The translations under genes and the position numbers were made by a program. DNA of 64,000 nt from Candidatus Omnitrophota bacterium (GTDB taxonomy: Bacteria > Omnitrophota > Gorgyraeia > Gygaellales > Profunditerraquicolaceae), in the NCBI GenBank assembly GCA_026387405.1, contig JAPLLV010000057.1, forward strand, positions 1,503-65,502. Reading direction: 5' to 3'. Each line of letters begins with the position of its first letter. The first letter of the stretch is position 1. This document shows, piece after piece, positions 2-21,907 of this stretch. Below the pieces are notes generated by a model that made no database searches, was not told where the DNA came from, and saw nothing but the letters and a program-made list of their open reading frames with translations.

Positions 2-703
2 TGGCAGGATAACTCTAATAATGAGACTGGTTTTATTATTGAGCGCGGTATAGGATCTTCATCCCAATTCTTTTTTAAGATAGGCACCACATCCGCCAAT
101 GTTACTACCTACGTAGACTCTGGTGGTATCAACAGTACCTACTACTATCGTATCCGCGCCCAAAATACTTACGGATACTCCAGCTATTCCAATATAGTAA
201 GCGCAAAGACTGCTAGTGCGTCAAACTCGCCCCCCACAGTCGGCTCAGTTTCTCCTTCAAGTAGTTCTTGCACGGTCAATGGCTCCATTAATTTAACTAC
301 TACTTATTCCGATGCAGATGGCTGGCAGGATATTCAATCTGCCTATCTTCTTGTAAATACCTCGACCAATGGCTCAAACTGTTTTTACGGATATTACAAT
401 CGTAATACAAATCAGCTTTACTTGGGGAATGACGCTAATTCTACGTGGTTAGGAGGTTTTATCCCCGGTTCGGCAAATTCAATCGAAAATTCTTATGCCA
501 AGTTAGACTGTTCGCAGACAACCGTTTCAGGTTCTGGTACAACACTGACCATTAAGTGGAGTTTAATCTTAAAGGATGCATTTTTCGGCATTAGAAATAT
601 ATATTTATATGTAGCCGATAATTCGGGCGCTACCAATACCGGCGGTTTGGCCCAAAAAGGGGATGTGTGTATTTTTAAAACACCTATTGCGCCACCAAAC
701 TAA
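2..703 (+). CDS. 5'-truncated CDS (window edge): C-terminal part of a secreted Ser/Thr/Asn-rich protein with an Fn3-like module
   Basis: Frame 2 is open from nt 2 to the TAA at 701-703; the track only reports it from the first Met at 422. The translation contains ...YYYRIRAQNTYGYSSYSNIVSAKT..., typical of the last strands of a fibronectin-III-like domain. Product is otherwise unknown. Confidence 0.45.
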   Translation, partial: WQDNSNNETGFIIERGIGSSSQFFFKIGTTSANVTTYVDSGGINSTYYYRIRAQNTYGYSSYSNIVSAKTASASNSPPTVGSVSPSSSSCTVNGSINLTTTYSDADGWQDIQSAYLLVNTSTNGSNCFYGYYNRNTNQLYLGNDANSTWLGGFIPGSANSIENSYAKLDCSQTTVSGSGTTLTIKWSLILKDAFFGIRNIYLYVADNSGATNTGGLAQKGDVCIFKTPIAPPN

Positions 704-704
704 T

Positions 705-3700
705 ATGAAACGTAGACTCTTTAAGATACTTTCTATAGTTTTGATTTTTCTCCACTTGTGGATAGTGTGCTTGAGGGATTATAGTTTCGCTGCCAGCCAA
801 CAGGATTCTTCTCAGAATAGTTCGAATACAAACTCTACCAAATCGGAGAAGGCGCCGGCTGTTGACAAAGCAGTGTCTGCGAATTCTGCCAGTACGTCTG
901 CGGTCAGTATGAGTAGTTCTTCAGATTCAAGTATAGTTTTCCCACCAACTCCTTTTCAGGCCTCAAATTTCAATCATGTCCTTGATTCAGTTTCTCCGGA
1001 CATATTCACTGGCAGGGCGCAATTGAGCATTCCAATATCTATTCCTCGCGGGAAAAGAGATATCTCTCCCCAGTTAACAATAGCTTATCAAAGCGGCAAT
1101 GGTACTGGCGTTGTAGGGGTAGGATGGTCCCTCGACTTAGGATCAATTGCCCGTTCGACAAAAAAAGGCGTTCCCAAATATGATTCATCCGATATTTTTA
1201 TTGCGCAAGGCCAGGAATTAACGTCCATTGGTAATAGCGAATACAGAAGCCAGATAGAAGGCAGCTTTGTTAAATACGTATTTGACGGGACAACATGGCT
1301 TGCAGTAGATAAAACAGGAACTAAATATTATTTCGGTTCTACAGATGCCTCGCATGTTACAATTTCGAAAGGAACCTATTCCTGGGCATTGGATAAGATA
1401 ATGGATTTAAAAGGCAATTACCTTACGGTTACATATGACAAAAATGGGAATGAACTTTATCCTTCCAATATCTCCTATACAGCAAACGACTCCACCGGAT
1501 TACCGGCAGAATACCATATTACTTTTACCTATGAGAACAGGTTGGATACTTCAACTACTTATATTATCGGTGATTTAGTACAGTTGCTACGGAGGCTAAC
1601 AAAGATAGAAATCTCCTTTGGCAGCAATCTTATACACAAGTACGTATTCGAATATATACAAAGCCCATCTACCCAGAGAAGTCTTCTGAATAAAATTACC
1701 GAATATGGCGCAGATGGTACAACAGCGTCTCCGCCAATAATCTTTACTTACCGAACAAATACCGGCAGTTGGTCAACTGATCAGCAGAAGTGGCATGCTC
1801 CAGACGGAGATTTTATAACTTCTGGCATGGATCAAGGCAGGAGGCTGTACGATTTGAACGGTGATGGTATGGCTGATTTCGTTGTTGCATGCCACGATTG
1901 GACTCTAGCTTCCAACCGGCAACAACTGATTGAAACCTTTCTTGGTTCAAAGAACGGTTTTAGTGCTACGTCTAACTGGTTGACGGTTCCTGGGGGGTAT
2001 TTTACGTTTTATAATAGGAGTATGGGAGGTACAGGGTATTGGGATAATGGCCGGAGATTGGTAGATTTAACCGGAGATGGGATTCCCGAGCTGCTGGTGG
2101 CAAGTCCCCAGGAATGGGTAAAAGGCGGCCCCTATAAGGATACGTATGAATTTAAATATCCGACTAACTTAAATCCCCAATGGTCTGAGAGTACAAACTG
2201 GAATCTTCCTGAAGGATACTTTGTTTATAGAAATGTGGTTGATGATCCTAATAATCCTAATCCTCCTCCTTTCCCAATTGGTTGGGGGATACTCATCATT
2301 TACCAATTTGACGGTGGGATACGTTTCGCTGATTTAAACGGAGACGGTTTAAATGATTTATCTATCGCCTTAGATACACAACGCTCAGTTCCGCGCGATG
2401 TAAACACTTATATTAATACCGGAAGCGGATGGCAGCAGGATACTCGCTGGAATATTCCTGATGGTAACTACTATAGTACGGGATCAGGAGATGGCGGCGT
2501 ACGCCTGGTAGATGTTAATGGCGATGGGCTGGCCGATGTTTTAATTGCCCGCGATGGCAATAAAGCTACTTATTTAAATAATGGCTCCGGTTGGACAAGA
2601 AACGATGCCTACAATATACCAGATGGAGATTTTTGTGATGGGGGGAGAGACCAGGGAAGGATGCTCGTGGATATTAACGGCGACGGATTGCCAGATCTGG
2701 TTATTGCCCAAAATGGATACCATGCAGTTTATATAAATACGGGTTCCGGCTGGAAGCGAGACGATTCTTTTAACCTTCCTGATGGTGACTTTGTAGATGC
2801 AAATGGGAGTGATCAAGGCAGATACCTGGGAGATTTAGATGGTGACGGGGTAATTGATTCATTGGTAGCAAAAGACGGCTATAAAAAAGCCTACCTTAAC
2901 TTAACAGGTGTTCCAGATTTTCTCATCGGCGTTTCTAATGGTTTAGGCGGAAGTACTAATATCGAATATACCCCTTCAACAGCATACAATAATTACGGTG
3001 CTAATCAGACGGGAAGACTTCCTTTTGCGGTTCAGGCCGTTTCCAGGATAACAAGCAATGACGGACAGGGGAATTCATACGTAACGGCATATTCCTATAG
3101 CGGTGGTTATTATTACGCACCTGACCGGGATTACCGCGGCTTTAACTATGTTAAGGTTACCGATGCTACTGGTAATTACAAAGAAAGCTACTTTAAGCAG
3201 GATGACATCCTTAAAGGGAAACCTTATGAACAGGACACAAGCGATTCATCGGGAAAGCTTCTGGCGAAGACTGTAAATGTATGGCAAGCAACCCAGCTTT
3301 ATCAGGGCGTGAATTTCCCGTTTTTGGCAAAAACCGATAGTTTTATCTATGATGGCTCTAGCTATAAGCAGACCGAGACGCAATACCAATATGATAATTA
3401 TGGTAATACCACGACAGTTACTTCCTGCGGTGATATGAGTTTAACCGGTGATGAGAAATCACAAGTTACTGAATTCGTTTATGATGTTTCGGATTGGATA
3501 GTTGCTCTGCCAAAACACGCTAGTCTGTTAGATGCCCAGGGAAACAAGGTTTCGGAAAAATGGTTTTATTATGATTACCATGCTAATGTGGATGATTTAC
3601 CCACTCTGGGCTTATTAACCAAAGAAGAGAACTTGCTCTACAATCCCTTAACTATTCAATCGGCTAGAGTCTCTACTCAGTATACTTATGACCAGTACGG

Positions 3701-6700
3701 AAATCCTCTTTCGGTAACCGATGCTTTAGGCAGACAGGTTACTACAATGTACGATACGGTCTGTTACAGTTATCCGGTGAACCTGGCCAATGCTTTAACG
3801 CAGAACGTGGCTACGGTTTACTACGGAATAAATGAGCCTAATAATGACAGCGTTTCTGGTTTTGGTCTTGTAGGTCAGGTGAAATCCGTTCAGGATGTCA
3901 ATAATCAAAAAACTTACAACGTTTATGACGCCTTAGGCAGGCTTGTCAAGGTTATCGGGCCAAACGATACTGAAGTTAGTCCCGGTATAGTGTACGAATA
4001 TAATCTTACTCTTTCTCCCGTAAAAGTTACTAAGCGGGTTAAGATTAATTATGACGCACCTCTGCAGTATCTTTCTTCATTTCAATTCTCGGATGGCTTG
4101 AGCAGGATTGTAGAGGTTAAATCTCCCGCTCAAAGCGACATCCAAGGCCAAGCACGCCAGGTTGTCTCCGGCTTAGTAAAGTATGACTCTCGCGGCCAAG
4201 TAAAAGAAAAATATCTCCCTTATTTTGTTTCCGCTTCAGAAGATTTCGAGATTCCGGCATATGATACCCCCCACAATTCTTATGACTATGACGCCCTTGG
4301 CCGCTTAATCAAATCTACCAATCCGGACCTTTCCTATTCAACAATAAGCTATTCGCTTTGGAAAAGGACTGCAACCGATGAAAACGGCCATTCCATAACC
4401 GGGTATAGCGATGCCTATGGAAGAGTCATAAAGGTCCAGGAGCAAAACAACACGCAGATTTACAATACGAATTATCAATACGATACATTGGGTAACCTCA
4501 CGCAAGTTACCGATAACAAAAATAATATTACTCAGATGTGGTATGATTCGTTAGGCAGGAAATTAAAAATGAATGACCCTGATATGGGCATCTGTCTTTA
4601 TGCATATGATGATGTCGGCAACCTAGTTCAGCAGACAGATGCCAAGATCCAGGTTTTATCCTTTAATTATGATTCTTTGAATCGACTGACCACTAAGCTG
4701 GTTAACGGACAAACAATCGTTACTTATTCTTATGATGATTCTAGCAAGACATACTGCATGGGAAGGCTTTCCAATGTTTCTGACCAATCGGGTTCAACTG
4801 GTTTTTATTATGATAACTTAGGGAGGGAAATCAAGTCTGTTAAAACCGTTGATGGAGCTTCTTATGCCGTTGAGCGCACCTACGATGCCCTAGGCAGGAT
4901 CGTTACGTTAAAGTATCCCGACAATTCCATGGTTCAATATAGCTATAACCCTCAAGGGCTGTCCAGGGTTACCGATCTAACATCATCAGCCGATTACGTC
5001 TCTAACATTGATTATTCTGCAACAGGTCAGATAACTAGAATCCAATACGGTAATGGCACAGAAATCGACTATGCCTATGATCCGAATACCTTAAGGCTTT
5101 CTAATCTAATCACCCAATCTCCTTTCGGTAAGGTTCAGGATTTAAGCTATCAGTTTGATAAAATAGGCAACATAAGACAATTAAGCGATTACGTTAATAC
5201 CGCTACCCAATCTTTTTCCTATGATGATTTAAGTCGGCTTATCCAGGCAAGCGGATCGTACGGAACTTTTAGTTATACTTATGATTCAATCGGAAACATG
5301 CTTAGCAAAGAAGGCGTTAATTTAACTTACGGGAAAAACGGGGTATTGCCTCATGCGGTAACTAGATATGGTTCCACAGCTATTGATTATGACGCAAACG
5401 GTAACATGATCGCAAAAGGTAATTTGCAATTAACGTATGATGCTGAAAACCGCCTTATTAAGGCAGAAACTAAACCTAATGGGCAACAGACAGCAAGCGT
5501 TAATTTAACCTTAAATCCCGGGTGGAATTTCTTTTCTTTCCCGGTGGTGCCGGCTAATACGGCGGCATCTTCGGTTCTATCTTCTATAACAGGTAAATTT
5601 GTACAGGTTTCAAGGTATAATCCTTCTACTAAGAATTTCGAACATTATGTAGGGAACTCTAAATATGATCAATTTAGTACATTCGAATATGGCCGGGGTT
5701 ATCAGATTTTTATTTCTAGTTCTTCTCCGGTTACCTTAAGCGTTACCGGTACGCTTCCTTTAAGCCAATCATTAACGCTTAATTCAGGAGTTAATTTAAT
5801 TTTTGCGCCAAGCAATACAGAGTTGCCCGTTGAAAATGCTCTAAGTGGGCTAAAATTAGGAATCCACTATTCCAAAGTTTTATTCTATGATACGGCGCAA
5901 GGGGTATTCCAGGAGTATTCAGGAGTTAAGAAAGACTTTACCACCTTAAAACCGGGAGCAGCGTATTATCTTTACTGTTTAACTTCTTCTACCTGGACAA
6001 TTACTAATTCTTCACTATCATCAGATACCACGACTTTTGTCTACGATGGAGATGGGGAAAGGGTAAAGAAGACGAACACTTCTGGTTCGACCACTTACAT
6101 CGGATCTCTCTTTGAAAAAGACTATTCAGGCAAGACTACCAAATACATCTTTGCGGGCGCTAACCGTATCTGCACAGTGGATTCGACAGGGGAGAAATCT
6201 TTCTACCATTCGGATCATTTGGGTTCCTCTAACGTTATTACCGATTCCACGGGCAGGCAAACCGGCCTCACTGAGTTTACCCCATACGGTTCTGTTTCCA
6301 AGCAAACTGGATCCCATGGTCCCAAGTATAAGTTCACTGGCAAGGAGTTGGATAATACAGGGTTGTATTTCTACGGGGCAAGATATTACGACCCTACCAT
6401 AGGGCGTTTTATCACCGCGGATACGATAGTTCAAAGTCCTTACGACCCGCAAGCCCTGAATCGTTATTCGTATTGTCGAAATAACCCTATTAACTATACG
6501 GATCCTACCGGACATTCGTGGTGGAAAAAGTTTTGGGGGAAAGTGTCGGGATTCCTTGGTGCCGCTGTTGGAGTTGCTTTAGGGTTTATTAACCCATTCC
6601 TTGGAATGTTCGCTTATAGCGCTATTTCAGCCAGCGGGCAAGGTGGTAATTTTGGTCAAAACCTTGGAATCAATTTTGCTAGTAGTTTAGCAGGGTTTGT

Positions 6701-7436
6701 CGTAGGTACCGCAGCTTCGGGAATAGCTTCTAATATTTTTGGTGGGACTTTTTGGCCTGGCTTGGCAGGAGCTGCCTTAGGTGGCTCAGCGGGAGGCGCA
6801 GCCACCTCTGCGATGTTGGGAGGCAATGTCGGGATGGGAGCTTTGTCGGGATTGGCAGGCGGGACAATCGGATATATAGGCGGTTTTGTTTGGCCATTAG
6901 GAGGCGATGCGGTTGCAGGAGGTGTATCTTCTGTGGTTATGGGTGGAGATTTTGGGGAAGGTGCAGCACAAGGAGCTTACTATAATATGGCAGATACAGT
7001 TGGCGGAATACTTGGACCTATGCCAACATTAGGCGAACAAGATCCACAACCAGGCGATATCGCTTTTTTAAAGGCAAACAGTTCTCCTGGATGGGGTATT
7101 TCTTTGTTTGAAGGAGGACCGTTTTCGCATGTGGGGACGGTGACCGATAAAGGGTTAGCAAGTACTAACTTTGGGGAAGATTCTGGATATGTAGATCTGG
7201 GCAAATATAGTAATCGTGGTGCTTATGTTTCAACACGTTATCGTGGTAACCAATCAGTTATCAATGCTGCAATGGCTTTATCCAACCAATCTCCTAAAAT
7301 CCGATATGGATTCTTCTTCGGACAAAAAGTTTGTTCTACTATTACTGTCTCTGCCTTGAATAAAGGTGATAGGGGATGGTGGGGGATTGGACCTAATAGT
7401 CAATTTAATGTAATGAAAACCTATGGTGAGGAATAA
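705..7436 (+). CDS. Tc-toxin-like (TcB-TcC fusion type) RHS/YD-repeat polymorphic toxin with C-terminal variable cargo domain
   Basis: ATG at 705 follows the upstream stop; the N-terminus is a signal peptide (MKRRLFKILSIVLIFLHLWIVC). An SpvB/TcB-like motif is present (FTGRAQLSIPISIPRGKRDISPQLTIAYQSGNGTGVVGVGWSL). There are at least 6 FG-GAP/VCBS-like DxNGDGxxD propeller repeats. Many YD repeats follow (YSYDALGRL, YQYDTLGNLTQVTD, YDSLGRKL...). The RHS repeat-associated core is ...YFYGARYYDPTIGRFITADTIVQSPYDPQALNRYSYCRNNPINYTDPTGH. A ~310-aa non-repeat tail follows. Confidence 0.85.
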   Translation: MKRRLFKILSIVLIFLHLWIVCLRDYSFAASQQDSSQNSSNTNSTKSEKAPAVDKAVSANSASTSAVSMSSSSDSSIVFPPTPFQASNFNHVLDSVSPDIFTGRAQLSIPISIPRGKRDISPQLTIAYQSGNGTGVVGVGWSLDLGSIARSTKKGVPKYDSSDIFIAQGQELTSIGNSEYRSQIEGSFVKYVFDGTTWLAVDKTGTKYYFGSTDASHVTISKGTYSWALDKIMDLKGNYLTVTYDKNGNELYPSNISYTANDSTGLPAEYHITFTYENRLDTSTTYIIGDLVQLLRRLTKIEISFGSNLIHKYVFEYIQSPSTQRSLLNKITEYGADGTTASPPIIFTYRTNTGSWSTDQQKWHAPDGDFITSGMDQGRRLYDLNGDGMADFVVACHDWTLASNRQQLIETFLGSKNGFSATSNWLTVPGGYFTFYNRSMGGTGYWDNGRRLVDLTGDGIPELLVASPQEWVKGGPYKDTYEFKYPTNLNPQWSESTNWNLPEGYFVYRNVVDDPNNPNPPPFPIGWGILIIYQFDGGIRFADLNGDGLNDLSIALDTQRSVPRDVNTYINTGSGWQQDTRWNIPDGNYYSTGSGDGGVRLVDVNGDGLADVLIARDGNKATYLNNGSGWTRNDAYNIPDGDFCDGGRDQGRMLVDINGDGLPDLVIAQNGYHAVYINTGSGWKRDDSFNLPDGDFVDANGSDQGRYLGDLDGDGVIDSLVAKDGYKKAYLNLTGVPDFLIGVSNGLGGSTNIEYTPSTAYNNYGANQTGRLPFAVQAVSRITSNDGQGNSYVTAYSYSGGYYYAPDRDYRGFNYVKVTDATGNYKESYFKQDDILKGKPYEQDTSDSSGKLLAKTVNVWQATQLYQGVNFPFLAKTDSFIYDGSSYKQTETQYQYDNYGNTTTVTSCGDMSLTGDEKSQVTEFVYDVSDWIVALPKHASLLDAQGNKVSEKWFYYDYHANVDDLPTLGLLTKEENLLYNPLTIQSARVSTQYTYDQYGNPLSVTDALGRQVTTMYDTVCYSYPVNLANALTQNVATVYYGINEPNNDSVSGFGLVGQVKSVQDVNNQKTYNVYDALGRLVKVIGPNDTEVSPGIVYEYNLTLSPVKVTKRVKINYDAPLQYLSSFQFSDGLSRIVEVKSPAQSDIQGQARQVVSGLVKYDSRGQVKEKYLPYFVSASEDFEIPAYDTPHNSYDYDALGRLIKSTNPDLSYSTISYSLWKRTATDENGHSITGYSDAYGRVIKVQEQNNTQIYNTNYQYDTLGNLTQVTDNKNNITQMWYDSLGRKLKMNDPDMGICLYAYDDVGNLVQQTDAKIQVLSFNYDSLNRLTTKLVNGQTIVTYSYDDSSKTYCMGRLSNVSDQSGSTGFYYDNLGREIKSVKTVDGASYAVERTYDALGRIVTLKYPDNSMVQYSYNPQGLSRVTDLTSSADYVSNIDYSATGQITRIQYGNGTEIDYAYDPNTLRLSNLITQSPFGKVQDLSYQFDKIGNIRQLSDYVNTATQSFSYDDLSRLIQASGSYGTFSYTYDSIGNMLSKEGVNLTYGKNGVLPHAVTRYGSTAIDYDANGNMIAKGNLQLTYDAENRLIKAETKPNGQQTASVNLTLNPGWNFFSFPVVPANTAASSVLSSITGKFVQVSRYNPSTKNFEHYVGNSKYDQFSTFEYGRGYQIFISSSSPVTLSVTGTLPLSQSLTLNSGVNLIFAPSNTELPVENALSGLKLGIHYSKVLFYDTAQGVFQEYSGVKKDFTTLKPGAAYYLYCLTSSTWTITNSSLSSDTTTFVYDGDGERVKKTNTSGSTTYIGSLFEKDYSGKTTKYIFAGANRICTVDSTGEKSFYHSDHLGSSNVITDSTGRQTGLTEFTPYGSVSKQTGSHGPKYKFTGKELDNTGLYFYGARYYDPTIGRFITADTIVQSPYDPQALNRYSYCRNNPINYTDPTGHSWWKKFWGKVSGFLGAAVGVALGFINPFLGMFAYSAISASGQGGNFGQNLGINFASSLAGFVVGTAASGIASNIFGGTFWPGLAGAALGGSAGGAATSAMLGGNVGMGALSGLAGGTIGYIGGFVWPLGGDAVAGGVSSVVMGGDFGEGAAQGAYYNMADTVGGILGPMPTLGEQDPQPGDIAFLKANSSPGWGISLFEGGPFSHVGTVTDKGLASTNFGEDSGYVDLGKYSNRGAYVSTRYRGNQSVINAAMALSNQSPKIRYGFFFGQKVCSTITVSALNKGDRGWWGIGPNSQFNVMKTYGEE

Positions 7437-7440
7437 AATA

Positions 7441-7830
7441 ATGGCTCTAAAGGTAATAATTCCGATGATTATATCGTTGTCTTTACTGCTCTGTGGCTGC
7501 GTAACAACTAGTCAAGCTAAAATGCCAAATTATGAAGCTCGCAAATCTTATGTCGAGACGCATTCTGAGCTAGCGGTGGAAATAAAACAAGCCATACTTA
7601 AAGGTAAAGTGATAGAGGGCATGACTAAACAAGATGTATTAGTAGCTTGGGGTGAGCCAAGTAAAATACATAGATATAGCGAGCATAAAAGGCTTGTCGA
7701 TGAAACTGATGAGAATACTCATGATGAGAGCTGGCTTTACGATCAGCCTTTTTATTCCTTTGCGCCAAGGAAATTTGTTAGATTTGGTACCGATGGTATT
7801 GTCAATTATGTAAGCGTATATTATAATTAG
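7441..7830 (+). CDS. small lipoprotein, candidate immunity protein for the upstream RHS toxin
   Basis: ATG at 7441 lies 5 nt after the RHS stop. It has a lipoprotein signal with lipobox (MALKVIIPMIISLSLLLCGC). Position immediately 3' of an Rhs C-terminal tip is where immunity genes are found. No recognisable catalytic motif. Confidence 0.5.
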   Translation: MALKVIIPMIISLSLLLCGCVTTSQAKMPNYEARKSYVETHSELAVEIKQAILKGKVIEGMTKQDVLVAWGEPSKIHRYSEHKRLVDETDENTHDESWLYDQPFYSFAPRKFVRFGTDGIVNYVSVYYN

Positions 7831-7854
7831 CCAGTAACCTTTAATAAAGTCAAA

Positions 7855-8049
7855 ATGAGAAAAACTGAACTTTTGGTCTTTATAATTTTAATTCCTCTTT
7901 TGATTATCGGTTGTGCAACTACTCCTGAAGAAAAAGAATACCGAAAGAATAAAGAAATAGTGAATTCAGCAATTCAAGGAAGTAAACCAAAACCAGTTAT
8001 TAATTCAACAACAGCCGTTATATCCGAAACGATTCGAAGACAACACTGA
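7855..8049 (+). CDS. small lipoprotein (possible second/orphan immunity gene)
   Basis: Lipoprotein signal MRKTELLVFIILIPLLIIGCATT; 64 aa; same strand, immediately downstream. Confidence 0.35.
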   Translation: MRKTELLVFIILIPLLIIGCATTPEEKEYRKNKEIVNSAIQGSKPKPVINSTTAVISETIRRQH

Positions 8050-8364
8050 TAAGAAAATTAAGAATATAGTCTGTACAGCCTTTTACATGCTGATTATTTA
8101 TGCAAAAAGCACATCCCTTATTAACACGTATAAAATTCCTTGCAAATTTCCCTCAAATTTCTACCAAAACTGCCACCATGGTTAAGCTCTGAGTCATTCT
8201 GTTCGGTGGTGTAAAACGGCTCAAAGAGATGCGGAAGGTTCTTTGCCGGAAAACCGCAGCCAGCATCAGCTAAGTTTACTGGGGACGGGTTTACTGGAGA
8301 CGCGTCCTAAGGGGACAGGTTAGGCAAGAATAGCCTATTGAAAATAAAGAATTTAGAAGAGGAG

Positions 8365-8405
8365 TTGCGATAACAGGTTTGTAAGAAGTTATCGCAATTT
8401 TTTTT
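8365..8405 (+). terminator. Rho-independent terminator-like hairpin plus T-tract
   Basis: The stem ttgcgataac / gttatcgcaa (10 bp) with a 13-nt loop is followed by tttttttt. Confidence 0.45.
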
Positions 8406-8427
8406 ACAGCAGAGAGGCAGATTGACA

Positions 8428-8455
8428 TTGACAACGCGGAGTTTTAAGTTATAAT
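8428..8455 (+). promoter_or_regulatory. sigma70-type promoter, consensus -35 TTGACA / 16 bp / -10 TATAAT
   Basis: TTGACA at 8428-8433 and TATAAT at 8450-8455, about 140 nt upstream of the first gene of the pilus cluster (8594). A tandem TTGACATTGACA is present. Confidence 0.5.
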
Positions 8456-8593
8456 ACAATGAACTTTAAGCAAGTGGCGTCAGTGAGGTTTAAGGCAGGG
8501 AGTGCTAAGAAAACCCGGACGGCTATAAGCTTATACAATTAATTAACGCCGTCAGGCAGGGTTGTCTGCCGACAGGCAGAGAGGGAGGAAAAG

Positions 8594-9016
8594 ATGGGTC
8601 GGAGGTTGCTGGTTTGTGGGGTTCTTTGTTTTTTAGTTTTAGTTGCCGGTTGCGCTACGTCTAAAAAAGGAAATCTGTCTGGCCAGGAGCAGAATCTAAG
8701 TTCGGCTAATGCTACCGGTATAGACGCGACTGTTCCGGCTGGTCCAGCTGGTGCGGAGAGTCAAAATATTTCAACAGAGTCAAAAGCTACTGAAATGCCT
8801 AATGTTAGCCCAACCAAGAACGCAGGCGCTTTGACTAAAAAGGACATCCAGACCGCTTTAAAAAACGCCGGGTTTTATAACGGCCTCATTGATGGTAAGA
8901 TGGGTCATCACACCAGGAAAGCGATCAGAGAATTTCAGAAGGCGAACGGGTTAAAAGCGGATGGCGTTGCCGGCAAAAAGACCAAGTCTTTACTGGCAAA
9001 ATATCTGTCTAAATAG
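8594..9016 (+). CDS. lipoprotein with C-terminal peptidoglycan-binding (PG_binding_1-like) domain
   Basis: Lipobox LVLVAGCATS. C-terminal ...ALKNAGFYNGLIDGKMGHHTRKAIREFQKANGLKADGVAGKKTKSLL matches the PG-binding domain pattern. Confidence 0.65.
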   Translation: MGRRLLVCGVLCFLVLVAGCATSKKGNLSGQEQNLSSANATGIDATVPAGPAGAESQNISTESKATEMPNVSPTKNAGALTKKDIQTALKNAGFYNGLIDGKMGHHTRKAIREFQKANGLKADGVAGKKTKSLLAKYLSK

Positions 9017-9055
9017 ACCGCATACATCCGTAGGCTTATTTTAATTCAAAGCTAA

Positions 9056-10078
9056 ATGGTCATACCGTTTACTCGCCAGCTTTATATTCTCATCAAATCC
9101 GGGATCCCGCTTTTAAGAGCCCTCCAGGTTAATTCTGTTCAGCTGCCCAAAGGAAAATTCAAGGACGCCATCGATGGCGTTATCCAGGAGATCCAGGAAG
9201 GCAAAAATCTTTCCGAGGCCCTCTTGTCCAACAGGAAGTTCTTCTCCTTGTTCTATATCAATATGGTCAAGGCCGGAGAGGTCACCGGTAATTTGACCGC
9301 GGTACTCAAAGAACTTTCTGAGCATCTCGTCCAGCACGACCGCATACGCCAACAGGTGCGCGCTGCTTTTATGTACCCGATTTTTATCTTAGTCGTGGCG
9401 GTCATCATCTTGACGGTGCTTTTGATGTTCGTCCTGCCGATTTTCACCCGCATATTCGCGGACCTCGGAGGGACTCTTCCCCCGGCTACTTTATTTTTAA
9501 TCTGGCTGAGCAAGGTCACGATCCGCTGGGGGTGGTTGGTGTTTTTAATTGTTGGGTCGGCTGTTATGGGCTTAGTGATCCTAGTGCGCAAATCTCCCAG
9601 AGGCAGCTACGTGGTCAATGACCTGGTATGGAAGATCCCTCTTTTCGGCATGCTGGTAAAGACTATGGAGTTGGGCAGGTACTGTCGTACCCTGGGGACG
9701 CTATTATCTTCGGGGGTAACCCTGGTAAAGGCGCTGGAGGTTTTATTTGATACGACTGAATCTTCGGTCCTGCATAAGGCCATCGAAGACATCCGTTTCA
9801 ATATCGAACAGGGCAAAAGCCTTTCTGCGGCTATGGACGAGACAAAGGTTTTCCCCCTGACACTGGTGAGCTTGACCCAGATCGGAGAGGAGAGCGGCAA
9901 ACTCGCGGATATATTCGTTGAGGCGGCAAAGGACTACGAGGATGAAGTCGAGTATTCTATCAAAGGGCTGCTGTCGCTTCTTGAGCCGGCGCTGATATTG
10001 ATCATGGGGGCAATAGTCGGATTTATCGTGATCGCCCTATTTTTCCCGATCTTTACCATGAGCGTAATGGTGAAGTGA
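9056..10078 (+). CDS. pilC: type IV pilus / T2SS inner-membrane platform protein (GspF/PilC family)
   Basis: GspF-domain hallmarks (..NMVKAGEVTGNL.., ..TQIGEESGKLADIF..), three TM segments, 340 aa (short N-terminus). Confidence 0.8.
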   Translation: MVIPFTRQLYILIKSGIPLLRALQVNSVQLPKGKFKDAIDGVIQEIQEGKNLSEALLSNRKFFSLFYINMVKAGEVTGNLTAVLKELSEHLVQHDRIRQQVRAAFMYPIFILVVAVIILTVLLMFVLPIFTRIFADLGGTLPPATLFLIWLSKVTIRWGWLVFLIVGSAVMGLVILVRKSPRGSYVVNDLVWKIPLFGMLVKTMELGRYCRTLGTLLSSGVTLVKALEVLFDTTESSVLHKAIEDIRFNIEQGKSLSAAMDETKVFPLTLVSLTQIGEESGKLADIFVEAAKDYEDEVEYSIKGLLSLLEPALILIMGAIVGFIVIALFFPIFTMSVMVK

Positions 10079-10101
10079 GGCAGGAGCGTAATATTAATAT
10101 A

Positions 10102-10500
10102 ATGAAGAAGATACGGATCCCCGCGCTAAAATCTTTAGTGCGGGGTTTTACTTTAATAGAGATACTGATATCACTTTCTATCTTAGCTCTGGGGATCGTG
10201 ATTATGTTCAGCCTTTTTCCTTTATCTCTGCGTTCCCTGACCTATAGCCGGAAGCTCACCGAGGTTTATTTCCTGGCAGAGAAAAAGATGGAGGAGTATA
10301 AGTCCGTAGAAAATAAAACGACGATAGAAGCGGCGAGCGGCATTGACGGGGATTTACGCTGGAACGCAAATCCCAAAAGTTTGCAGCTTGGGGAGGGACT
10401 GGACGTGATTTATCTTGAGCTTGATATCAACTATGATTTTATGGGGCATGCTGAAAAGCAGAGGTTCGGCACCTACTTTTTTAAGGAGTGCAATTGTTAA
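10102..10500 (+). CDS. prepilin-type N-terminal cleavage/methylation domain pseudopilin
   Basis: MKKIRIPALKSLVRGFTLIEILISLSILALGIV: G|FTLIE class-III signal peptide motif; ATG at 10102 with upstream GGAGG-like RBS. Confidence 0.75.
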   Translation: MKKIRIPALKSLVRGFTLIEILISLSILALGIVIMFSLFPLSLRSLTYSRKLTEVYFLAEKKMEEYKSVENKTTIEAASGIDGDLRWNANPKSLQLGEGLDVIYLELDINYDFMGHAEKQRFGTYFFKECNC

Positions 10501-10859
10501 GGATGGGTAAGTCCGGTCAGGCTGTAGTGGTTGTCATAGCCATACTTTCGATTATTTTTATCGCGGGGATCGCATTTTATGTGCTCTCTCAGGCGGAGAG
10601 GACCGCGAGCATGCGGCACCTGGACAGCCTGCGCTCCAGATACATAGCTGAGGCAGGCGTGGTCTATGCCCAAAAAGTTTTGGAATTGGACAGAAAAGAA
10701 AATCTCATTGATTCAGCCAAGGACAGATGGTTTACAAATTTTGCCGGCAGCGATGTGGATATAGACGGCGATAATATCCCCGAGAGCCGCTGGATAGAGA
10801 TGCCCGACAGCGAAGGAAAGTCTTTTGGGCGTTTCCCGCCGCCCGTTGAACGCGATTGA
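10488..10859 (+). CDS. GspK/PilX-like minor pseudopilin, N-terminal portion (frame 3); probably the same gene as 10825-13179, interrupted by a frameshift
   Basis: N-terminal hydrophobic helix plus ...RHLDSLRSRYIAEAGVVYAQKVLEL... matches the GspK N-region. It stops at 10857-10859, while the adjacent frame-1 ORF has no ATG start. Confidence 0.55.
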   Translation: MQLLRMGKSGQAVVVVIAILSIIFIAGIAFYVLSQAERTASMRHLDSLRSRYIAEAGVVYAQKVLELDRKENLIDSAKDRWFTNFAGSDVDIDGDNIPESRWIEMPDSEGKSFGRFPPPVERD

Positions 10860-13179
10860 GCAGGTGGGAGCGGTCCTGGGGACAAAGGATTTTAACCTGG
10901 TCAAGGATTCTATCACCGTATATTCTAAAGACCCGGAAATAGACGTGAGCCGCAAAAGGAGGGTCTACTTAAACAGTTTATGGCCTCAAAAAGCCCTGGA
11001 ATCGTTTTTAATCAAGGGTGTCAAAGATGCATTTCAGAAAGCCGCGAACTTAAAAGACGCCATCGATACTGATCTAAGCCAAACGCAGCTGATAAAATTT
11101 TCTTTATCTAATCTTGGGCCGTCTGCTCTTGTCGAGGGAGGCGGATGGTCCAGGGTGGGGAACTATTATCAGGCCTTGCGGGGGACAGCGGAAGGTAAAT
11201 TCTCCTGGAGCGGGTTAGCGGTTGATGACGGGGAGTATTATTGTTTTTTCAATGCCCCGGATAACGAAGATACCGTGGGAGAGGTAATTGTCGATGATAG
11301 CGATACGGGCGCCTTGATCCTTTCCGGAGAAGGCCCGGGTAAAAAGGTTAAGGTATCCGGCGGGGCCTTTACCGTGCGCATCAGGCCTTCTAAAGACACG
11401 GATTGCCGGTTTTTGAATATTGAGCTGTCCGACATGATCCCGCGTAATGGCTTACAGAGAAAAGTGGTCAGCGGGACCGAGGCATTAGTGATCAATGAAC
11501 TAATGGTAAAGCTTGCAGCGGAATTTACGTCAGGGACAATTTCAATTACGCCGGGGCAGGATTATAAACATGTATTTTCCGGTGTAAGGGTGGGATCATT
11601 TCATTTACAAATAAAGGCAGGTACCGCCGGCGCGACAGTGGGCGATGTCACGGTAAACGGACAGACCGCAAGTAATATGCACGACGGAGATTATTTTCCG
11701 TCTGTGGTGCATGTGGATTGCGATGACCCAAAAAATAATACAGGGCCGCTAACGCTTGAGATAAGGAATAATTCTGTTTCGAACACCTCTTTCGGCGGCA
11801 TCAAGGTCCTGCAGGAACCCGACGCGGAATACGTCGAGATACTTAATCTTTCCGGAGACACTATTGATTTGAGCAATTTTGTCCTGGTAGTTTATAACAG
11901 TTCAGGGGATCTCGTGCCGGGGTGGCCTGCTACTATACCCAAGGGCGCCAAGATCGATCCCTACCAAGAGCTGGTGTTGGCGGTAGATAGTAATGACGGT
12001 TCTCCCGCTCCGGTTAATCTTAGGAGTAATGGGATCTCGTTTCAATCGGTATGGGGCACGACTGCCACAGGCCTTATCTTTGAAGAGCAGGGTATTATCG
12101 ATAAGCGTTTTGATGCGCTTCCCGATGCCGGAGGAATGGTTATGTTGTGCAACGCGCAGGGAGAGCGTATCGATGCGGTTAAATACGCGGCTCAGTCGCC
12201 CGGATTCACAAGCCTGGAACGCGGTGATCCCAGCGCCGCCGGTGATTCCGACGGCGACGGCCTGTTTGACTTATGGTATATCGGTTCGCAAAAAGAACTG
12301 CACGCTACGCCCGGGAGCGTGAATGAGAATGCCGGGACATACACCATTGATAAGACTACAGGCGAGGCGATTAAACATTATCCCACCGAGGTCAAGGTCT
12401 TTAACCATCCGCTTTCGAACCTTACCGACGTGTTGCAGTTATCATCCGGGCAGGCCTGGAAGAAATTTACTATTTCCGACCTGGCCCAGATGGTGGACCA
12501 TTTTGCCTATGAGGCGCTTAATTTCGATCTTGTCGGCCATTATAAAGAGGGAGATTTCCTGGAGCGCAGCGGGGCATTCGAATCGCGCCACCAGGGTGAA
12601 AGCGGAACTTGGGAGTTTACCGATATCGCGCGCGGAGATTATCTATTGACTATTCTCGGGGATGAGAGCACGCAGTTCTCGGGAAACGAGAAAGTGCAGG
12701 TTTCATTAAAGACCGGCAGCCAGCAGGACTTTACACCCGCCGCAACGATCTTCTTTACCACGCAGGGGATTATATTTTACGGCAAAATAGAATTCTTGAA
12801 AAACCCTTCGCAGCTGACTTTAAAGATTGTCAATAACACCGAAACAAGGATAGCTATAAAATCAATACAGCTTGAGCCGATTTATGTGACACCCGGCCGT
12901 ATCAATGTGAATACCGCCAGGGCCGAAGTCTTACGCGGCATCTTGGGATCGGATTCGCTGGTGCAGACGGTGATAAAAAACCGGCCTATCGGCGCTAAGG
13001 ATAGCAGGAAACTGGGGGTGGGGGACCTGTTTTTGCTGGATTCAAGTTTCCTGGCTTTTCACAACTACCTTACCGTAAAATCCGATGTCTATGAAATAAG
13101 ATGTCGGGGTGAATACCATCCCATAGATAAGATTTTGGCCACCCTGAATATCCGTTCTGTAGTAGAGCGGGGGGAATAG
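10825..13179 (+). CDS. GspK-like minor pseudopilin body with inserted lamin-tail domain (LTD) and C-terminal GspK helix-hairpin-helix region (frame 1)
   Basis: LTD signature ...PDAEYVEILNLSGDTIDLSNFVLVVYNSSGD... GspK-type C-terminus ...GRINVNTARAEVLRGILGSDSLVQTVIKNRPIG... Frame 1 is open from 10798, and the ORF has only a TTG/GTG start. Confidence 0.55.
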   Translation: MGVSRRPLNAIEQVGAVLGTKDFNLVKDSITVYSKDPEIDVSRKRRVYLNSLWPQKALESFLIKGVKDAFQKAANLKDAIDTDLSQTQLIKFSLSNLGPSALVEGGGWSRVGNYYQALRGTAEGKFSWSGLAVDDGEYYCFFNAPDNEDTVGEVIVDDSDTGALILSGEGPGKKVKVSGGAFTVRIRPSKDTDCRFLNIELSDMIPRNGLQRKVVSGTEALVINELMVKLAAEFTSGTISITPGQDYKHVFSGVRVGSFHLQIKAGTAGATVGDVTVNGQTASNMHDGDYFPSVVHVDCDDPKNNTGPLTLEIRNNSVSNTSFGGIKVLQEPDAEYVEILNLSGDTIDLSNFVLVVYNSSGDLVPGWPATIPKGAKIDPYQELVLAVDSNDGSPAPVNLRSNGISFQSVWGTTATGLIFEEQGIIDKRFDALPDAGGMVMLCNAQGERIDAVKYAAQSPGFTSLERGDPSAAGDSDGDGLFDLWYIGSQKELHATPGSVNENAGTYTIDKTTGEAIKHYPTEVKVFNHPLSNLTDVLQLSSGQAWKKFTISDLAQMVDHFAYEALNFDLVGHYKEGDFLERSGAFESRHQGESGTWEFTDIARGDYLLTILGDESTQFSGNEKVQVSLKTGSQQDFTPAATIFFTTQGIIFYGKIEFLKNPSQLTLKIVNNTETRIAIKSIQLEPIYVTPGRINVNTARAEVLRGILGSDSLVQTVIKNRPIGAKDSRKLGVGDLFLLDSSFLAFHNYLTVKSDVYEIRCRGEYHPIDKILATLNIRSVVERGE

Positions 13180-13390
13180 TAATTTCCATCCGATTCATAA
13201 CTCCTTGTAAATAAAGAAGTTTAGGTCCTCTTCAAACAAAGCCTACCATTTCTTCCGATGCATTTTTTATAGCATTAGCGTGTGCCGAATCATATTCTTC
13301 ACATCACCTGTTGCTTTTCGTTCGCGTCGGGACATTGTTCGCGCACGAATTTTTTCGCCGTGCACTACGGCTTATGGCTCGATTCTGAGT

Positions 13391-13432
13391 TCTAGACCCG
13401 CGGTGGAAAGATGCTTCCACCGCGGGTCTGGA
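13391..13432. repeat. REP-like palindromic hairpin (family CCAGACCCGCGGTGGA)
   Basis: tctagacccgcggtggaa / agatgc / ttccaccgcgggtctgga: inverted arms with one mismatch. Confidence 0.7.
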
Positions 13433-13440
13433 ACTGGTCC

Positions 13441-13555
13441 ATATTGTTCGAGCGAGCCCTGAGCGAAGCGAAGGGCGAGTCGAGAACAGGCTCTGTTACT
13501 TCTCGACTCCGGCCTCGCTTACGCTCGGCCTTCGCTCGAAGAATAAAAAAGCCGC
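13441..13555. repeat. interspersed repeat module (ttgttcgagcgag...gagtcgagaa...cttcgctcgaagaataaaa), related to copies at 49196-49290, 19966-20058 and 59931-60013
   Basis: Shares the CGCTCGAAC / TTCTTCGAGCG / TCGAGAAG sub-motifs with those loci. Confidence 0.4.
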
Positions 13556-13612
13556 CGAGTCCCTACCGGAATGACTGTTTCAAAGAAAGGAAAAACCCGC
13601 CGAAAAAAAAGC

Positions 13613-13641
13613 TTGACAAATCGTAAAAAAATACATAAGAT
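13613..13641 (+). promoter_or_regulatory. sigma70-like promoter (-35 TTGACA, 17-bp spacer, -10 TAAGAT) with downstream direct repeats
   Basis: TTGACA at 13613-13618 and TAAGAT at 13636-13641. Direct repeats TATCAAATA x2 and TTCAAAG x2 lie between the promoter and the ATG at 13703, forming a possible operator. Confidence 0.4.
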
Positions 13642-13702
13642 AGTGTCACTTCGTATCAAATATGTTCAAAGTATATCAAATAGGTTAAGAGAGGTTCAAA
13701 GC

Positions 13703-13924
13703 ATGCAAGACATTAACGATTATTTCCTAAAGGAGGTTGAGATGCAAAAGGCATACCTGTCTACACAGGAGGTCGCTAAGGTCCTGGGGATATCCAAGCA
13801 GACCCTCCTGCGCTACGAAAAGAGGAAGATCTTCCCTAAGCCGAAACGTAACCTCATCAACAAACGCAGGGAATATTCCATCCAGGATATCGAAAAGTTA
13901 AAGACGATCATAGGGAGGAGATAA
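13703..13924 (+). CDS. small helix-turn-helix DNA-binding protein (MerR/excisionase-like HTH)
   Basis: ...LSTQEVAKVLGISKQTLLRYEKRKIFPKP... is a classic HTH. ATG at 13703 is preceded by AGAGAGG. The track ORF starts further upstream at 13571. Confidence 0.6.
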   Translation: MQDINDYFLKEVEMQKAYLSTQEVAKVLGISKQTLLRYEKRKIFPKPKRNLINKRREYSIQDIEKLKTIIGRR

Positions 13925-13932
13925 TTACGCCG

Positions 13933-15453
13933 ATGGGATTCCTCCAGCAGAAGAGGATAATGAGCCTGGACATCGATGAGTCTTTCGTCGTGGCTAGAGA
14001 ATTGACAAAGAGAGGCGCTCGTATATCACTGGGGCGCCACAGCACCCTATCCAGCCTAAGCGAACTTATAAAAGACCCCTCGCTTAAGTTTAAAGATGAA
14101 GGCGTAGTCATTAACGCCCCGACCCAGATCGTATACTTTCGCAGCTTCGCTATTAACCCTGGGTTATCGAAATTATTGAAATTGAAAAACAGAAAGTCCC
14201 GGGAAAAAGAAATATCGACTTTTATTGCCCGGCAGAATCTTCCCATAAAATTAGAGGAGTGCTACTGGACCATATTCATTCTAAATGACAACTTGAATCT
14301 TGTCGCTGCCAGAAAAGAGATCATAGAGAGGCATATCGCAATAGTGGAAAACCTGGGATTGAGGGTAGTAGGGGTTATACCTTCGATCGTGTCGCTGTAC
14401 AATGTCTTTATATATAATTATCCAAAGAATAAGAACCGGTTTGCCCTTTTGAATATAAAGAGTTCCGCGAGCGATATGATCATCTATGAGGCCAGGCATT
14501 TATGGATATGCCCTATTTCTGTAGGGTCTCATACGCTAAGACAGGATGAATCTGCGGGGGAGAAATTCTCTCTGGAGATCCAGCGCACTCTCAATTCTTA
14601 CTATATACAGAATAACGCCAGGGAAAAGAGTATTCTTCCGTTTTACCTAAGCGGCCAGGATCTGTTTTCGAGCCTGGCATTCTCCCTGAAAAAGGCCCTG
14701 GGAGAGGTCGAGCTTATAGAATTCGAGCCTTTTAAAAATGTCGTCTTCCCGAAAGATTCCAAGGTTAACCGCCAGGTAAGCACCTTGAGCCTGGGGTTAG
14801 GCATTACGTATTTCCGGATGCCGCAAACGATAAATGTCAATCTCCTCCGGGAGAAGATGCTTAAGGCGCAGCATCTTAACCAGGTTAAATTATTTAAAAA
14901 GATATCCATACCGCTTATGATAATCAGTGTTTTGATCCTGGGGCTGGTGAATATCAACCTTATAAAAGATGTTAAGGATCAGATTTCATTATATAAGCAA
15001 AGTAATTTATATGTTTCTAAGATTTTGCCTGAATTGAAATTGCTAAAGTCTCAGAAGGATAAGTATCAGAAACCCCTGGATTTCCTGCGCGGCAGGCTCA
15101 ACCGCCAGATACTTTTCCTCAAGGCGCTGGCTGCTATTTCTGAAGGCAGGCCTAAGACCGCGGAGATAAGGGAATTTTCTGCCGAGGTGAAGGACGCAAA
15201 ATTGCAGGTCCTTCTTTCCGGTACCGGGCCGTCATACGCCGAGATCAACGAGTTCCTGAATAATATCAGGAAAAACGAAGAGATCAAAGAGACTAAGATC
15301 ATTGCTTCAAGCGCTGCGGGAGGCGAGAGTTCCGGAGGGCAGATTAATTTTAAATTACGTTTTGAAATGCCGGTTCCGGAACCAGTCTCGGTTAAGGCGC
15401 AGGCTGAGAATACCACAGCTGTCAAGAATGTGCAAGGAACGGCTAAGAAATGA
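13933..15453 (+). CDS. putative PilM/PilN-like fusion (cytoplasmic actin-like domain + TM + periplasmic coiled coil) of the pilus assembly platform
   Basis: 506 aa; a mid-protein TM segment (ISIPLMIISVLILGLVNINLI) is followed by a coiled coil, and the position between pilC and the secretin fits. The N-terminus is not a canonical PilM, so the assignment is tentative. Confidence 0.45.
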   Translation: MGFLQQKRIMSLDIDESFVVARELTKRGARISLGRHSTLSSLSELIKDPSLKFKDEGVVINAPTQIVYFRSFAINPGLSKLLKLKNRKSREKEISTFIARQNLPIKLEECYWTIFILNDNLNLVAARKEIIERHIAIVENLGLRVVGVIPSIVSLYNVFIYNYPKNKNRFALLNIKSSASDMIIYEARHLWICPISVGSHTLRQDESAGEKFSLEIQRTLNSYYIQNNAREKSILPFYLSGQDLFSSLAFSLKKALGEVELIEFEPFKNVVFPKDSKVNRQVSTLSLGLGITYFRMPQTINVNLLREKMLKAQHLNQVKLFKKISIPLMIISVLILGLVNINLIKDVKDQISLYKQSNLYVSKILPELKLLKSQKDKYQKPLDFLRGRLNRQILFLKALAAISEGRPKTAEIREFSAEVKDAKLQVLLSGTGPSYAEINEFLNNIRKNEEIKETKIIASSAAGGESSGGQINFKLRFEMPVPEPVSVKAQAENTTAVKNVQGTAKK

Positions 15454-15529
15454 ACCCCGCACCTTCTAAGGCATTCATCGGAGGGCTCGGAGGGATGAGT
15501 AAACTGCTGAATAAAAAAGAAGGTGCGGG

Positions 15530-19890: not shown

Positions 19891-19892
19891 AA

Positions 19893-20058
19893 TTGTCATT
19901 GCGAACCCCCAAAGGGGGTGAAGCAATCACGTTTGAGATTGCCGCGTCGCCTGCGGCTCCTCGCTCGAACAATATAGTTTATTCTTCGAGCGGAGCGAAC
20001 GAAGTGAGCGTAGTCGAGAAGATAAAATTGTCGGTTCGCTCGAACAGTATTCTTGGGG
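19893..20058. repeat. composite repeat: RPE-like MITE copy B plus a TTCTTCGAGCGG...TCGAGAAG module
   Basis: ttgtcattgcgaacccccaaagggggtgaagcaatcacgtttgagattgc... is ~90% identical to copy D (23461-23555). Its 3' part matches 59931-60013. Confidence 0.65.
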
Positions 20059-20096
20059 TTAAGCAACAAATTCTATGATTAGGAGATTTCATAACG

Positions 20097-21758: not shown

Positions 21759-21792
21759 CATCGTCATTCAGACTATGTCAGAATACCATTTT

Positions 21793-21897
21793 TCGTCATT
21801 GCGAGCGACCAACGGGAGCGAAGCAATCTCAAAAACGTGATTGCTTCTCCGCCTTCGGCGGATCGCAATGACAACATGTTTGTGTCTCGCAATGACA
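21793..21897. repeat. RPE-like MITE, copy C
   Basis: tcgtcattgcgagcgaccaacgggagcgaagcaatctcaaaaacgtgattgcttc...gatcgcaatgacaacatgtttgtgtctcgcaatgacaag, with a duplicated right terminus. Confidence 0.7.
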
Positions 21898-21907
21898 AGT
21901 TGAAAAA

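Follow-up and report, generated by a model that had tools for sequence, protein, structure and literature searches.

What does the C-terminal tail of an RHS polymorphic toxin in an Omnitrophota genome do, and on which part of a target cell does it act? The gene lies in a stretch of 64,000 nucleotides (nt) from a Candidatus Omnitrophota bacterium (assembly GCA_026387405.1, contig JAPLLV010000057.1, positions 1,503 to 65,502 of the forward strand), which we call the window, and its tail consists of a glycine-rich hydrophobic linker followed by a C-terminal domain. An initial annotation of the same DNA, made without database searches, had proposed that this domain is a circularly permuted papain-like hydrolase of the YaeF/YiiX type. 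Here, we describe the sequence and structure comparisons that bear on this proposal, the genes that accompany the domain in related loci, and the mode of action that we favour, namely damage to membrane lipids by a released, membrane-tethered Cys-His acyl hydrolase. To this whole chain, lipid substrate included, we give a probability of roughly 0.55. The coordinates of the features are collected in Table 1. Residues of the domain are numbered 1-150, corresponding to amino acids (aa) 2108-2257 of the open reading frame (ORF), so that H49 is H2156 and C117 is C2224.

Homology of the C-terminal domain

Sequence profiles and predicted structure together make it very probable that the tail domain is a homologue of the permuted NlpC/P60 enzymes. 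The tail that follows the RHS core is 306 aa long. Searched alone, it found no match in Pfam, and a single-sequence search of the PDB returned only a spurious mitochondrial uS8 ribosomal protein (E 0.049), so family profiles were essential. Word-indexed searches recovered two relatives with the domain and two with the linker. Among 1.84 billion cluster representatives, an exhaustive hidden Markov model (HMM) search identified 17 at E < 1e-3; of these, P0015 was a repetitive, spurious match and was dropped. About 15 further loci came from scans of genomes and metagenomes. The named host genomes are four Candidatus Omnitrophota metagenome-assembled genomes (MAGs) and one MAG labelled Planctomycetales. 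A tblastn search of plasmids returned no match. The family is very small and largely restricted to Omnitrophota.

The domain contains the motifs PGDIAF, SHVG and VCST, the last two of which hold the candidate catalytic His and Cys. In an alignment of 16 sequences, Y108, C117-S118-T119, G134 and P137 are invariant and H49 is nearly so. The ratio of non-synonymous to synonymous substitution rates (dN/dS) of the enzyme domain against two orthologous loci is 0.14-0.17. Because the Cys is invariant, the His almost so, and dN/dS lies at 0.11-0.17 for linker and enzyme, the observation goes beyond chance. The N-terminal boundary of the domain was placed at nt 6984 on the basis of two orphan cassettes (L001 and L004), which start at about '(A/E)T(V/A)GGIL-PMPTLGEQ', and of the discordance between linker and enzyme identities described below.

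When the family profile was compared with all PDB sequences, the top match was YiiX (2if6, E 0.0095), with the GD, SH and CS elements co-linear and in register. The remaining matches were canonical NlpC/P60 proteins (MepS/Spr, SAV0400 and a cell-wall hydrolase) and aligned on the His half only, which is the pattern expected from circular permutation. Profile-profile alignment with hhalign against 17 YiiX homologues reached a probability of 95.2% (E 2.7e-8, 113 columns), pairing H49 with YiiX H49 and C117 with YiiX C128; as a negative control, the same profile against an unrelated immunity alignment reached 0.2%. Across 16 members, with matches accepted up to E 10, the Pfam model NLPC_P60 was found in six (best 2.6e-4) and Peptidase_C92 in three (best 8.7e-3), and further enzyme families, including LRAT, DUF4105 and DUF6695, were found in none.

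Structure prediction leads to the same group. AlphaFold2, run with the family alignment, gave a predicted local distance difference test (pLDDT) score of 86.5 and a predicted template-modelling (pTM) score of 0.83. In the DSSP assignment of this model, H49 lies within strand 47-54 and C117 directly before helix 118-128. A Cys before a helix and a His on a strand form the papain/NlpC-P60 arrangement described for BcPPNE (PMC3142127), and the alignment to YiiX suggests that the two residues are close in space. The six best Foldseek matches in the PDB were BcPPNE (3kw0) and YiiX (2if6), with probabilities of 0.85-1.00 and template-modelling (TM) scores for the query (TMq) of 0.55-0.59; the LRAT-like proteins H-REV107 and HRASLS3 ranked lower. 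Against viral models (BFVD), the top named match is annotated as a YaeF/YiiX C92 enzyme, and OPG091, LRAT and picornavirus polyprotein entries stand below it.

The initial annotation fares well against these results. The sequence that it quoted is found in the window as described, and a GD(I/L) motif, the His of SHVG and a later Cys follow one another in the order that it gave. The YaeF/YiiX-type permuted NlpC/P60-papain fold that it proposed, in which His precedes Cys, is supported by profile search, profile-profile comparison and structure prediction, and Foldseek, run on the AlphaFold2 model, placed YiiX and BcPPNE first rather than an unrelated fold. The boundary that it drew at DPTG|H is exact: the NCBIfam model TIGR03696 (E 3.5e-25) is matched over positions 1-76 of 76 and stops on the His at nt 6513-6515, the last residue of DPTGH (aa 1947-1951, nt 6501-6515). 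Self-cleavage is a general property of RHS/TcC cores, and the tail is expected to be released by autoproteolysis at DPTG-H.

The linker, the immunity genes and the cassette

The linker comprises 157 aa (nt 6513-6983), of which 26% are Gly, 16% Ala and 9% Ser, and its positions 11 to 131 contain no charged residue. Its C-terminal third (~nt 6819-6983, GGNVGMGALSGLAGG...WPLGGDAVAGGVSSVVMGGDFGEGA) is conserved to the same degree as the enzyme domain. Across relatives this part reads GG-VG-GALAGLAGG...WPLGADAVAGGVSSVIMGG-FGEGA, with invariant Gly and Leu columns in the family alignment, and the dN/dS of the linker against the two orthologous loci is 0.11 and 0.14. The linker is thus a functional element rather than a spacer. 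Analogous Gly-rich linkers also occur with unrelated C-terminal domains in the same RHS clade, which suggests that such segments serve in delivery generally.

The two genes that follow the toxin both encode lipoproteins, as had been proposed, and the first of them co-varies with the enzyme domain. Its position and this co-variation suggest that it is the immunity gene. The protein has weak BamE/DUF2845-like similarity, and its profile found nothing meaningful in the PDB. In related loci, the next gene always encodes an exported product (a lipoprotein or a signal-peptide protein) and usually overlaps the stop codon of the toxin. The products fall into two groups. Group A, with 11 loci including the window, consists of lipoproteins of 112-135 aa directly 3' of the toxin that show weak DUF2845/BamE similarity (DUF2845 in four of five members scanned, best E 1.9e-4; BamE in three of five). 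Group B, with five loci, has products of 148-182 aa that are either lipoproteins or signal-peptide proteins; a weak DUF4019 match was seen in one of four scanned. Since both immunity families are exported, the toxin and its immunity protein are likely to act outside the cytoplasm.

The immunity group tracks the enzyme subclade and not the linker. The relative P0020 shares 88.9% identity with the window in the linker and only 50.7% in the enzyme, and its immunity gene is of group B; in P0003 the pattern is reversed (linker 72.9%, enzyme 86.0%). Together with the cassettes described below, this indicates that the enzyme is the neutralised moiety and argues against the linker as the primary toxin. 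We accordingly rejected the linker as the immunity-relevant toxin.

Wherever its flanks could be read, the domain was found only at an RHS C-terminus, after a core and a Gly-rich linker, or in an orphan cassette. Orphan cassettes stand behind another RHS toxin and its immunity gene at L001, L004, L005 and L006. Between the window and the syntenic loci L009 and L010, the conservation of the tails is 84-85% and 70-75%, and that of the RHS body is lower, at 38-72%; tail and immunity gene together are 70-86% similar between genomes (window 663-7433, L009 3818-10453, L010 451-7026). A tail that is more conserved than the body of its carrier fits cassette exchange between diverged RHS carriers.

Several observations at these loci deserve mention in their own right. 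In the four closest cassettes, the immunity gene is directly followed by a gene for a lipoprotein of 59-64 aa with the pattern GC(A/V)TT(P/S)EE(K/R)EY.KN... This is the second downstream gene of the window, with homologues at the same position in L009 (10871-11062), L010 (7416-7604) and L004 (2831-3010), and it could encode a second immunity or accessory factor. At L005 (2306-3226), an orphan fragment that starts within the RHS core (NNPINYVDPTGH) has its own Gly-rich linker, with only a weak match to the Pfam family 'Glycine zipper 2TM', and a different C-terminal domain, whose H-T-H-P ... S-P-A-D motif is reminiscent of Tox-JAB (JAB/MPN) toxins (Zhang et al., 2012). On the metagenomic contig of L001, a PhD/YefM-ParE toxin-antitoxin pair and a Fic-domain gene lie directly after the RHS orphan cassettes (5493-7035), in what looks like a conflict-system island.

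Mode of action and its alternatives

In the mechanism that we favour, the RHS core would self-cleave at DPTG|H and free a fragment of about 306 aa, whose linker of about 157 aa would insert into, or lie on, the membrane of the target cell and tether the cargo there; the odds for this tethering role are about even. The enzyme would work at the envelope's periplasmic face and be an acyl hydrolase, of phospholipase A or lipid-amidase type, and the producing cell would be protected by the immediately downstream lipoprotein, binding the enzyme domain. Other permuted NlpC/P60 enzymes, LRAT/HRASLS and Lnb among them, work on acyl-lipid substrates. The S1 pocket of permuted members is hydrophobic, and a fatty acid was found bound to YiiX (PMC3142127). 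Tox-Act1 is a phospholipase that is toxic only in the periplasm and whose immunity protein is membrane-associated, and phospholipase activity is seen with TseH too (PMC12994826). It is because other permuted NlpC/P60 enzymes use acyl lipids, and because the downstream genes encode exported lipoproteins, that we propose an acyl-lipid hydrolase acting outside the cytoplasm; lipid is somewhat favoured over peptidoglycan as its substrate.

Several results weigh against this mechanism or the homology beneath it. Matches to the curated YiiX and NlpC/P60 models lie far below threshold: the window tail scored 14.7 bits (E 0.016) against the NCBIfam model 'YiiX family permuted papain-like enzyme', for which the cutoff is 216, and the best Pfam values are 2.6e-4 to 8.7e-3. 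As neither the gathering score of Pfam PF05708 nor the 216-bit cutoff of NCBIfam NF007458 was passed, we regard the domain as a superfamily-level homologue within the permuted NlpC/P60 group, outside these two families. The Foldseek E-values are only ~1e-2, at TM-scores of 0.55-0.59. The invariant Tyr (Y108, nine residues before the Cys) aligns to YiiX F119, four residues past Y115, the conserved catalytic Tyr of YiiX. The acidic third residue of YiiX, Glu64 at H+15, is not conserved, and the column aligned to it by hhalign is variable. Instead of the Glu64 that completes the triad in YiiX and BcPPNE, the RHS-tail family has a polar residue at H+11/12 (Ser in the window; His, Asp or Gln elsewhere), placed on the adjacent strand across the hairpin from the Gly at H+2. 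Judged by the strand register of the model, it may occupy the third-residue geometry of canonical NlpC/P60 enzymes (HxGIYxGxGxxxH). The His hairpin as a whole is more like that of canonical, peptidoglycan-cleaving NlpC/P60 proteins (HxGIxxGxGxxxH), which leaves the choice of substrate between lipid and peptidoglycan.

The linker contributes to the same side of the balance. Small-xxx-small motifs number 47, and shuffles that keep the composition have 39.4 +/- 3.2 (47 is reached in 25 of 2000), and GxxxG occurs 16 times, compared with 10.3 +/- 2.4 (37 of 2000 reach 16). Zipper spacing is therefore only modestly above the level set by composition alone, and of the glycine-zipper segment in the initial annotation, the small-residue-rich, hydrophobic character stands and the zipper periodicity is only modestly borne out. 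AlphaFold2, run on the full tail, drew seven helices in the linker at a low pLDDT of 40-52, which suggests helix propensity. The linker of the window has no Pfam glycine-zipper match, and the analogous linkers of sister RHS tails have weak ones (E ~3e-3).

The alternative that survives best, rather unlikely in our estimation, is a cell-wall hydrolase, that is, a peptidoglycan amidase or endopeptidase like the Tae effectors of type VI secretion systems (T6SS) or canonical NlpC/P60 enzymes, one that the linker would keep close to the wall and a periplasmic lipoprotein would neutralise. Its His hairpin, SHxGxxxDxGxxxS/H, is the part that matches the canonical NLPC_P60 model in six of 16 members (best 2.6e-4) and the MepS/Spr chains of the PDB, and its third polar residue sits at the canonical H+11/12 rather than at the H+15 of YiiX. 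An exported lipoprotein as immunity protein would suit this enzyme equally well, and Tox-NLPC/P60 domains on TcdB/TcaC-type RHS toxins have been listed (Zhang et al., 2012; PMC3482391). However, the best full-length profile, hhalign and fold matches are all permuted enzymes (YiiX and BcPPNE, followed by LRAT/HRASLS), the characterised permuted members described in PMC3142127 and PMC12994826 all use acyl or lipid substrates, and an obligate fusion to a membrane-seeking segment is better suited to a substrate in the membrane.

It is distinctly improbable that the toxic action comes mainly from the Gly-rich segment, as a glycine-zipper toxin that forms pores or depolarises membranes like the C-terminal domain of Tse5 or EsxX, with the papain-like domain as an accessory. 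The segment is uncharged and helix-prone, is under purifying selection and has a strongly conserved core, sister tails give the weak glycine-zipper matches noted above, and the literature records pore-forming tails on RHS proteins as well as depolarising toxins with glycine zippers (PMC11630599, PMC12744356). Yet the orphan cassettes of L001 and L004 carry the enzyme and an immunity gene without the linker, and near-identical linkers are paired with different immunity families. The immunity proteins of pore-formers are usually multi-pass membrane proteins, unlike the soluble-domain lipoproteins that are the candidates here, and the occurrence of analogous linkers on unrelated domains speaks for delivery.

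Still less probable is an acyltransferase which, like LRAT or Lnb, would poison envelope biogenesis by transferring acyl chains from lipid to lipid or to lipoproteins. The weaker fold matches to H-REV107, HRASLS3 and viral LRAT entries lend it some support, but the nearest matches are YiiX and BcPPNE rather than LRAT, no member matched the LRAT or DUF4105 models at E up to 10, and the sole toxin of the group tested in detail behaves as a phospholipase. Finally, a fortuitous resemblance, with the tail as a non-enzymatic or unrelated cargo, would account for the insignificant single-sequence searches but is scarcely credible, as four independent profile and structure tests agree on one family with the catalytic residues in register and these residues are the most conserved in it.

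Genomic setting and comparison with known toxins

The carrier of the domain is a 2257-aa ORF. Its true start is probably the second Met, at nt 705 (2243 aa), from which the initial annotation had numbered its residues; read from there, the N-terminus resembles a Sec signal peptide. The signal peptide is followed by SpvB (Pfam E 8.5e-22), an FG-GAP beta-propeller (FG-GAP_3, 1.4e-16), TcdB_toxin_midN (1.9e-26), nine RHS repeats (RHS_repeat, 3.6e-35), the RHS core, the linker and the toxin domain. A signal peptide, SpvB, beta-propeller, TcdB-mid region, RHS repeats and a core ending in DPxG make this a TcdB/TcaC-type RHS protein, an architecture named as a polymorphic toxin carrier by Zhang et al. 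(2012; PMC3482391). There is no second RHS core or orphan cassette within the window, and no TcA-like gene among the window ORFs scanned. Two tandem beta-rich segments of ~85 aa (LTLNPGWNFFSFPVVP... and LTLNSGVNLIFAPSN...) are inserted after the last RHS repeats and ahead of the core, at window positions ~5700-6050 (aa ~1690-1800 of the RHS protein). The same insert is present in P0004, Pfam found no match in nt 5703-6302, and these segments may be insertions of the RHS shell that are exposed at its surface or bind a receptor.

Table 1. Features of the toxin locus, in window coordinates
Feature	Position (nt)	Strand	Basis
RHS polymorphic toxin gene	663..7436	+	2257 aa; Pfam and translation
RHS repeat-associated core, ends DPTG-H	6276..6515	+	NCBIfam TIGR03696
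Gly/Ala/Ser-rich uncharged hydrophobic linker ('glycine-zipper' segment)	6516..6983	+	Composition, family alignment, dN/dS
Toxin domain, probable circularly permuted NlpC/P60 (YiiX/YaeF-like) Cys-His hydrolase	6984..7433	+	Profiles, AlphaFold2, Foldseek
Candidate catalytic His (SHVG)	7128-7130
Candidate third polar residue, Ser	7161-7163
Invariant Tyr	7305-7307
Candidate catalytic Cys (VCST)	7332-7334
Candidate immunity lipoprotein, lipobox LLCGC	7423..7830	+	Translation; start overlaps toxin stop codon
Small conserved lipoprotein, 64 aa, lipobox IIGC	7855..8049	+	Translation

Downstream of the small lipoprotein gene, the 540 nt at 8050-8593 contain no ORF of at least 60 aa, and an Rfam scan of 7800-8700, which covers them, gave no match at E up to 0.1. 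The toxin cassette is directly followed, at 8594-23449 and 25958-46048, by a gene for a PG_binding_1 lipoprotein and then by a cluster resembling type II secretion systems (T2SS) and type IV pili. This cluster encodes GspF, a pseudopilin with an N_methyl motif, T2SSK-like and PilN-like proteins, a 1084-aa secretin and a GspE ATPase, and after it come a tetratricopeptide repeat protein and a giant ORF of 6696 aa. The arrangement matches the pattern of a T2SS-like locus preceding a giant gene that has been reported in Omnitrophota (bioRxiv 10.1101/2023.11.21.568195). IS200-type Y1 transposase genes are present at 47987-48658 in the window and at 486-1046 in L006, just upstream of a related RHS locus, and are possible vehicles for rearranging RHS regions. 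Downstream of the giant gene, a 370-aa ORF (46756-47868) matches the Pfam ALK/LTK glycine-rich domain PF12810 (E 4e-10), a family named after animal receptor kinases.

Compared with YiiX proper, the RHS-tail domain shares the order of His before Cys, the GD(I/L), SH and CS(T/E) elements in register and, in the predicted structure, a Cys at a helix N-terminus with a His on a beta-strand. It differs in length (~135-150 aa, compared with ~180-200 aa for YiiX-type proteins) and in setting: YiiX-type proteins stand alone and have housekeeping roles, while this domain is carried as cargo at the C-terminus of RHS proteins and is accompanied by an immunity gene.

Among antibacterial toxins, permuted NlpC/P60 enzymes have been characterised in Tox-Act1, a Salmonella T6SS effector, and in TseH of V. 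cholerae (PLoS Biol 2026, PMC12994826). Both appear to share with the RHS-tail family the superfamily, the permutation and the use as interbacterial toxins, and the periplasmic action and membrane-associated immunity protein of Tox-Act1 parallel the exported lipoproteins found here. The models for their families, DUF4105 for Tox-Act1 (which was compared through this Pfam model only) and DUF6695 for TseH, match none of the 16 RHS-tail members at E up to 10, and TseH appears neither among the PDB sequence matches nor among the best 50 of 73 fold matches. The carriers also differ, being Sec/SpvB/TcdB-type RHS proteins of Omnitrophota here and PAAR/VgrG T6SS RHS proteins in the Tox-Act1/TseH comparison, and the conserved Gly-rich linker sets the RHS-tail family apart from both. 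The accessible portion of the supplementary tables of that work (PMC12994826) lists fusions of RHS with DUF4105 and with DUF6695, and none with Peptidase_C92. The Tox-NLPC/P60 domains of Zhang et al. (2012; PMC3482391) likewise provide a papain-like domain at the C-terminus of TcdB/TcaC-type RHS proteins, but in the canonical order C, H, D, whereas the order here is permuted, H ... C. As a concept, the permuted NlpC/P60 RHS toxin with immunity in the periplasm has been published before, so the gain is incremental and the novelty modest.

Omnitrophota have been proposed to be predatory or host-dependent bacteria, and the description of their offensive machinery is only in its beginnings. The present analysis provides a probable fold and a candidate catalytic dyad (H2156 and C2224) for an RHS cargo that no database annotates, and places the lipid-associated, permuted branch of NlpC/P60 in the toxin arsenal of this group. 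A bolder reading, which we think unlikely, would see here a third independent recruitment of permuted NlpC/P60 enzymes into polymorphic toxins, nearer to YiiX/YaeF than to Tox-Act1/TseH, obligatorily coupled to a glycine-zipper insertion module and used against prey membranes by Omnitrophota beside a T2SS-like/giant-protein attack locus. If this were true, an easily assayed toxicity would give the first functional handle on the substrates of YiiX/YaeF-type enzymes.

The glycine-zipper depolarising toxins Tse5-CT, borne by an RHS protein, and EsxX, borne by a type VII secretion system, provide the remaining comparison. Like Tse5-CT, the tail is an RHS-encapsulated C-terminal fragment with hydrophobic, Gly-rich, helix-prone sequence that is likely to enter membranes; unlike Tse5-CT, it has a folded enzyme domain behind its Gly-rich part, and it is the enzyme that the immunity gene tracks. 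This modularity amounts to a natural experiment, in which one Gly-rich linker is paired with diverged enzymes and different immunity families. Among the known systems, the RHS-tail family is a previously unannotated one that stands nearest to the YiiX/BcPPNE branch and carries a conserved Gly-rich module.

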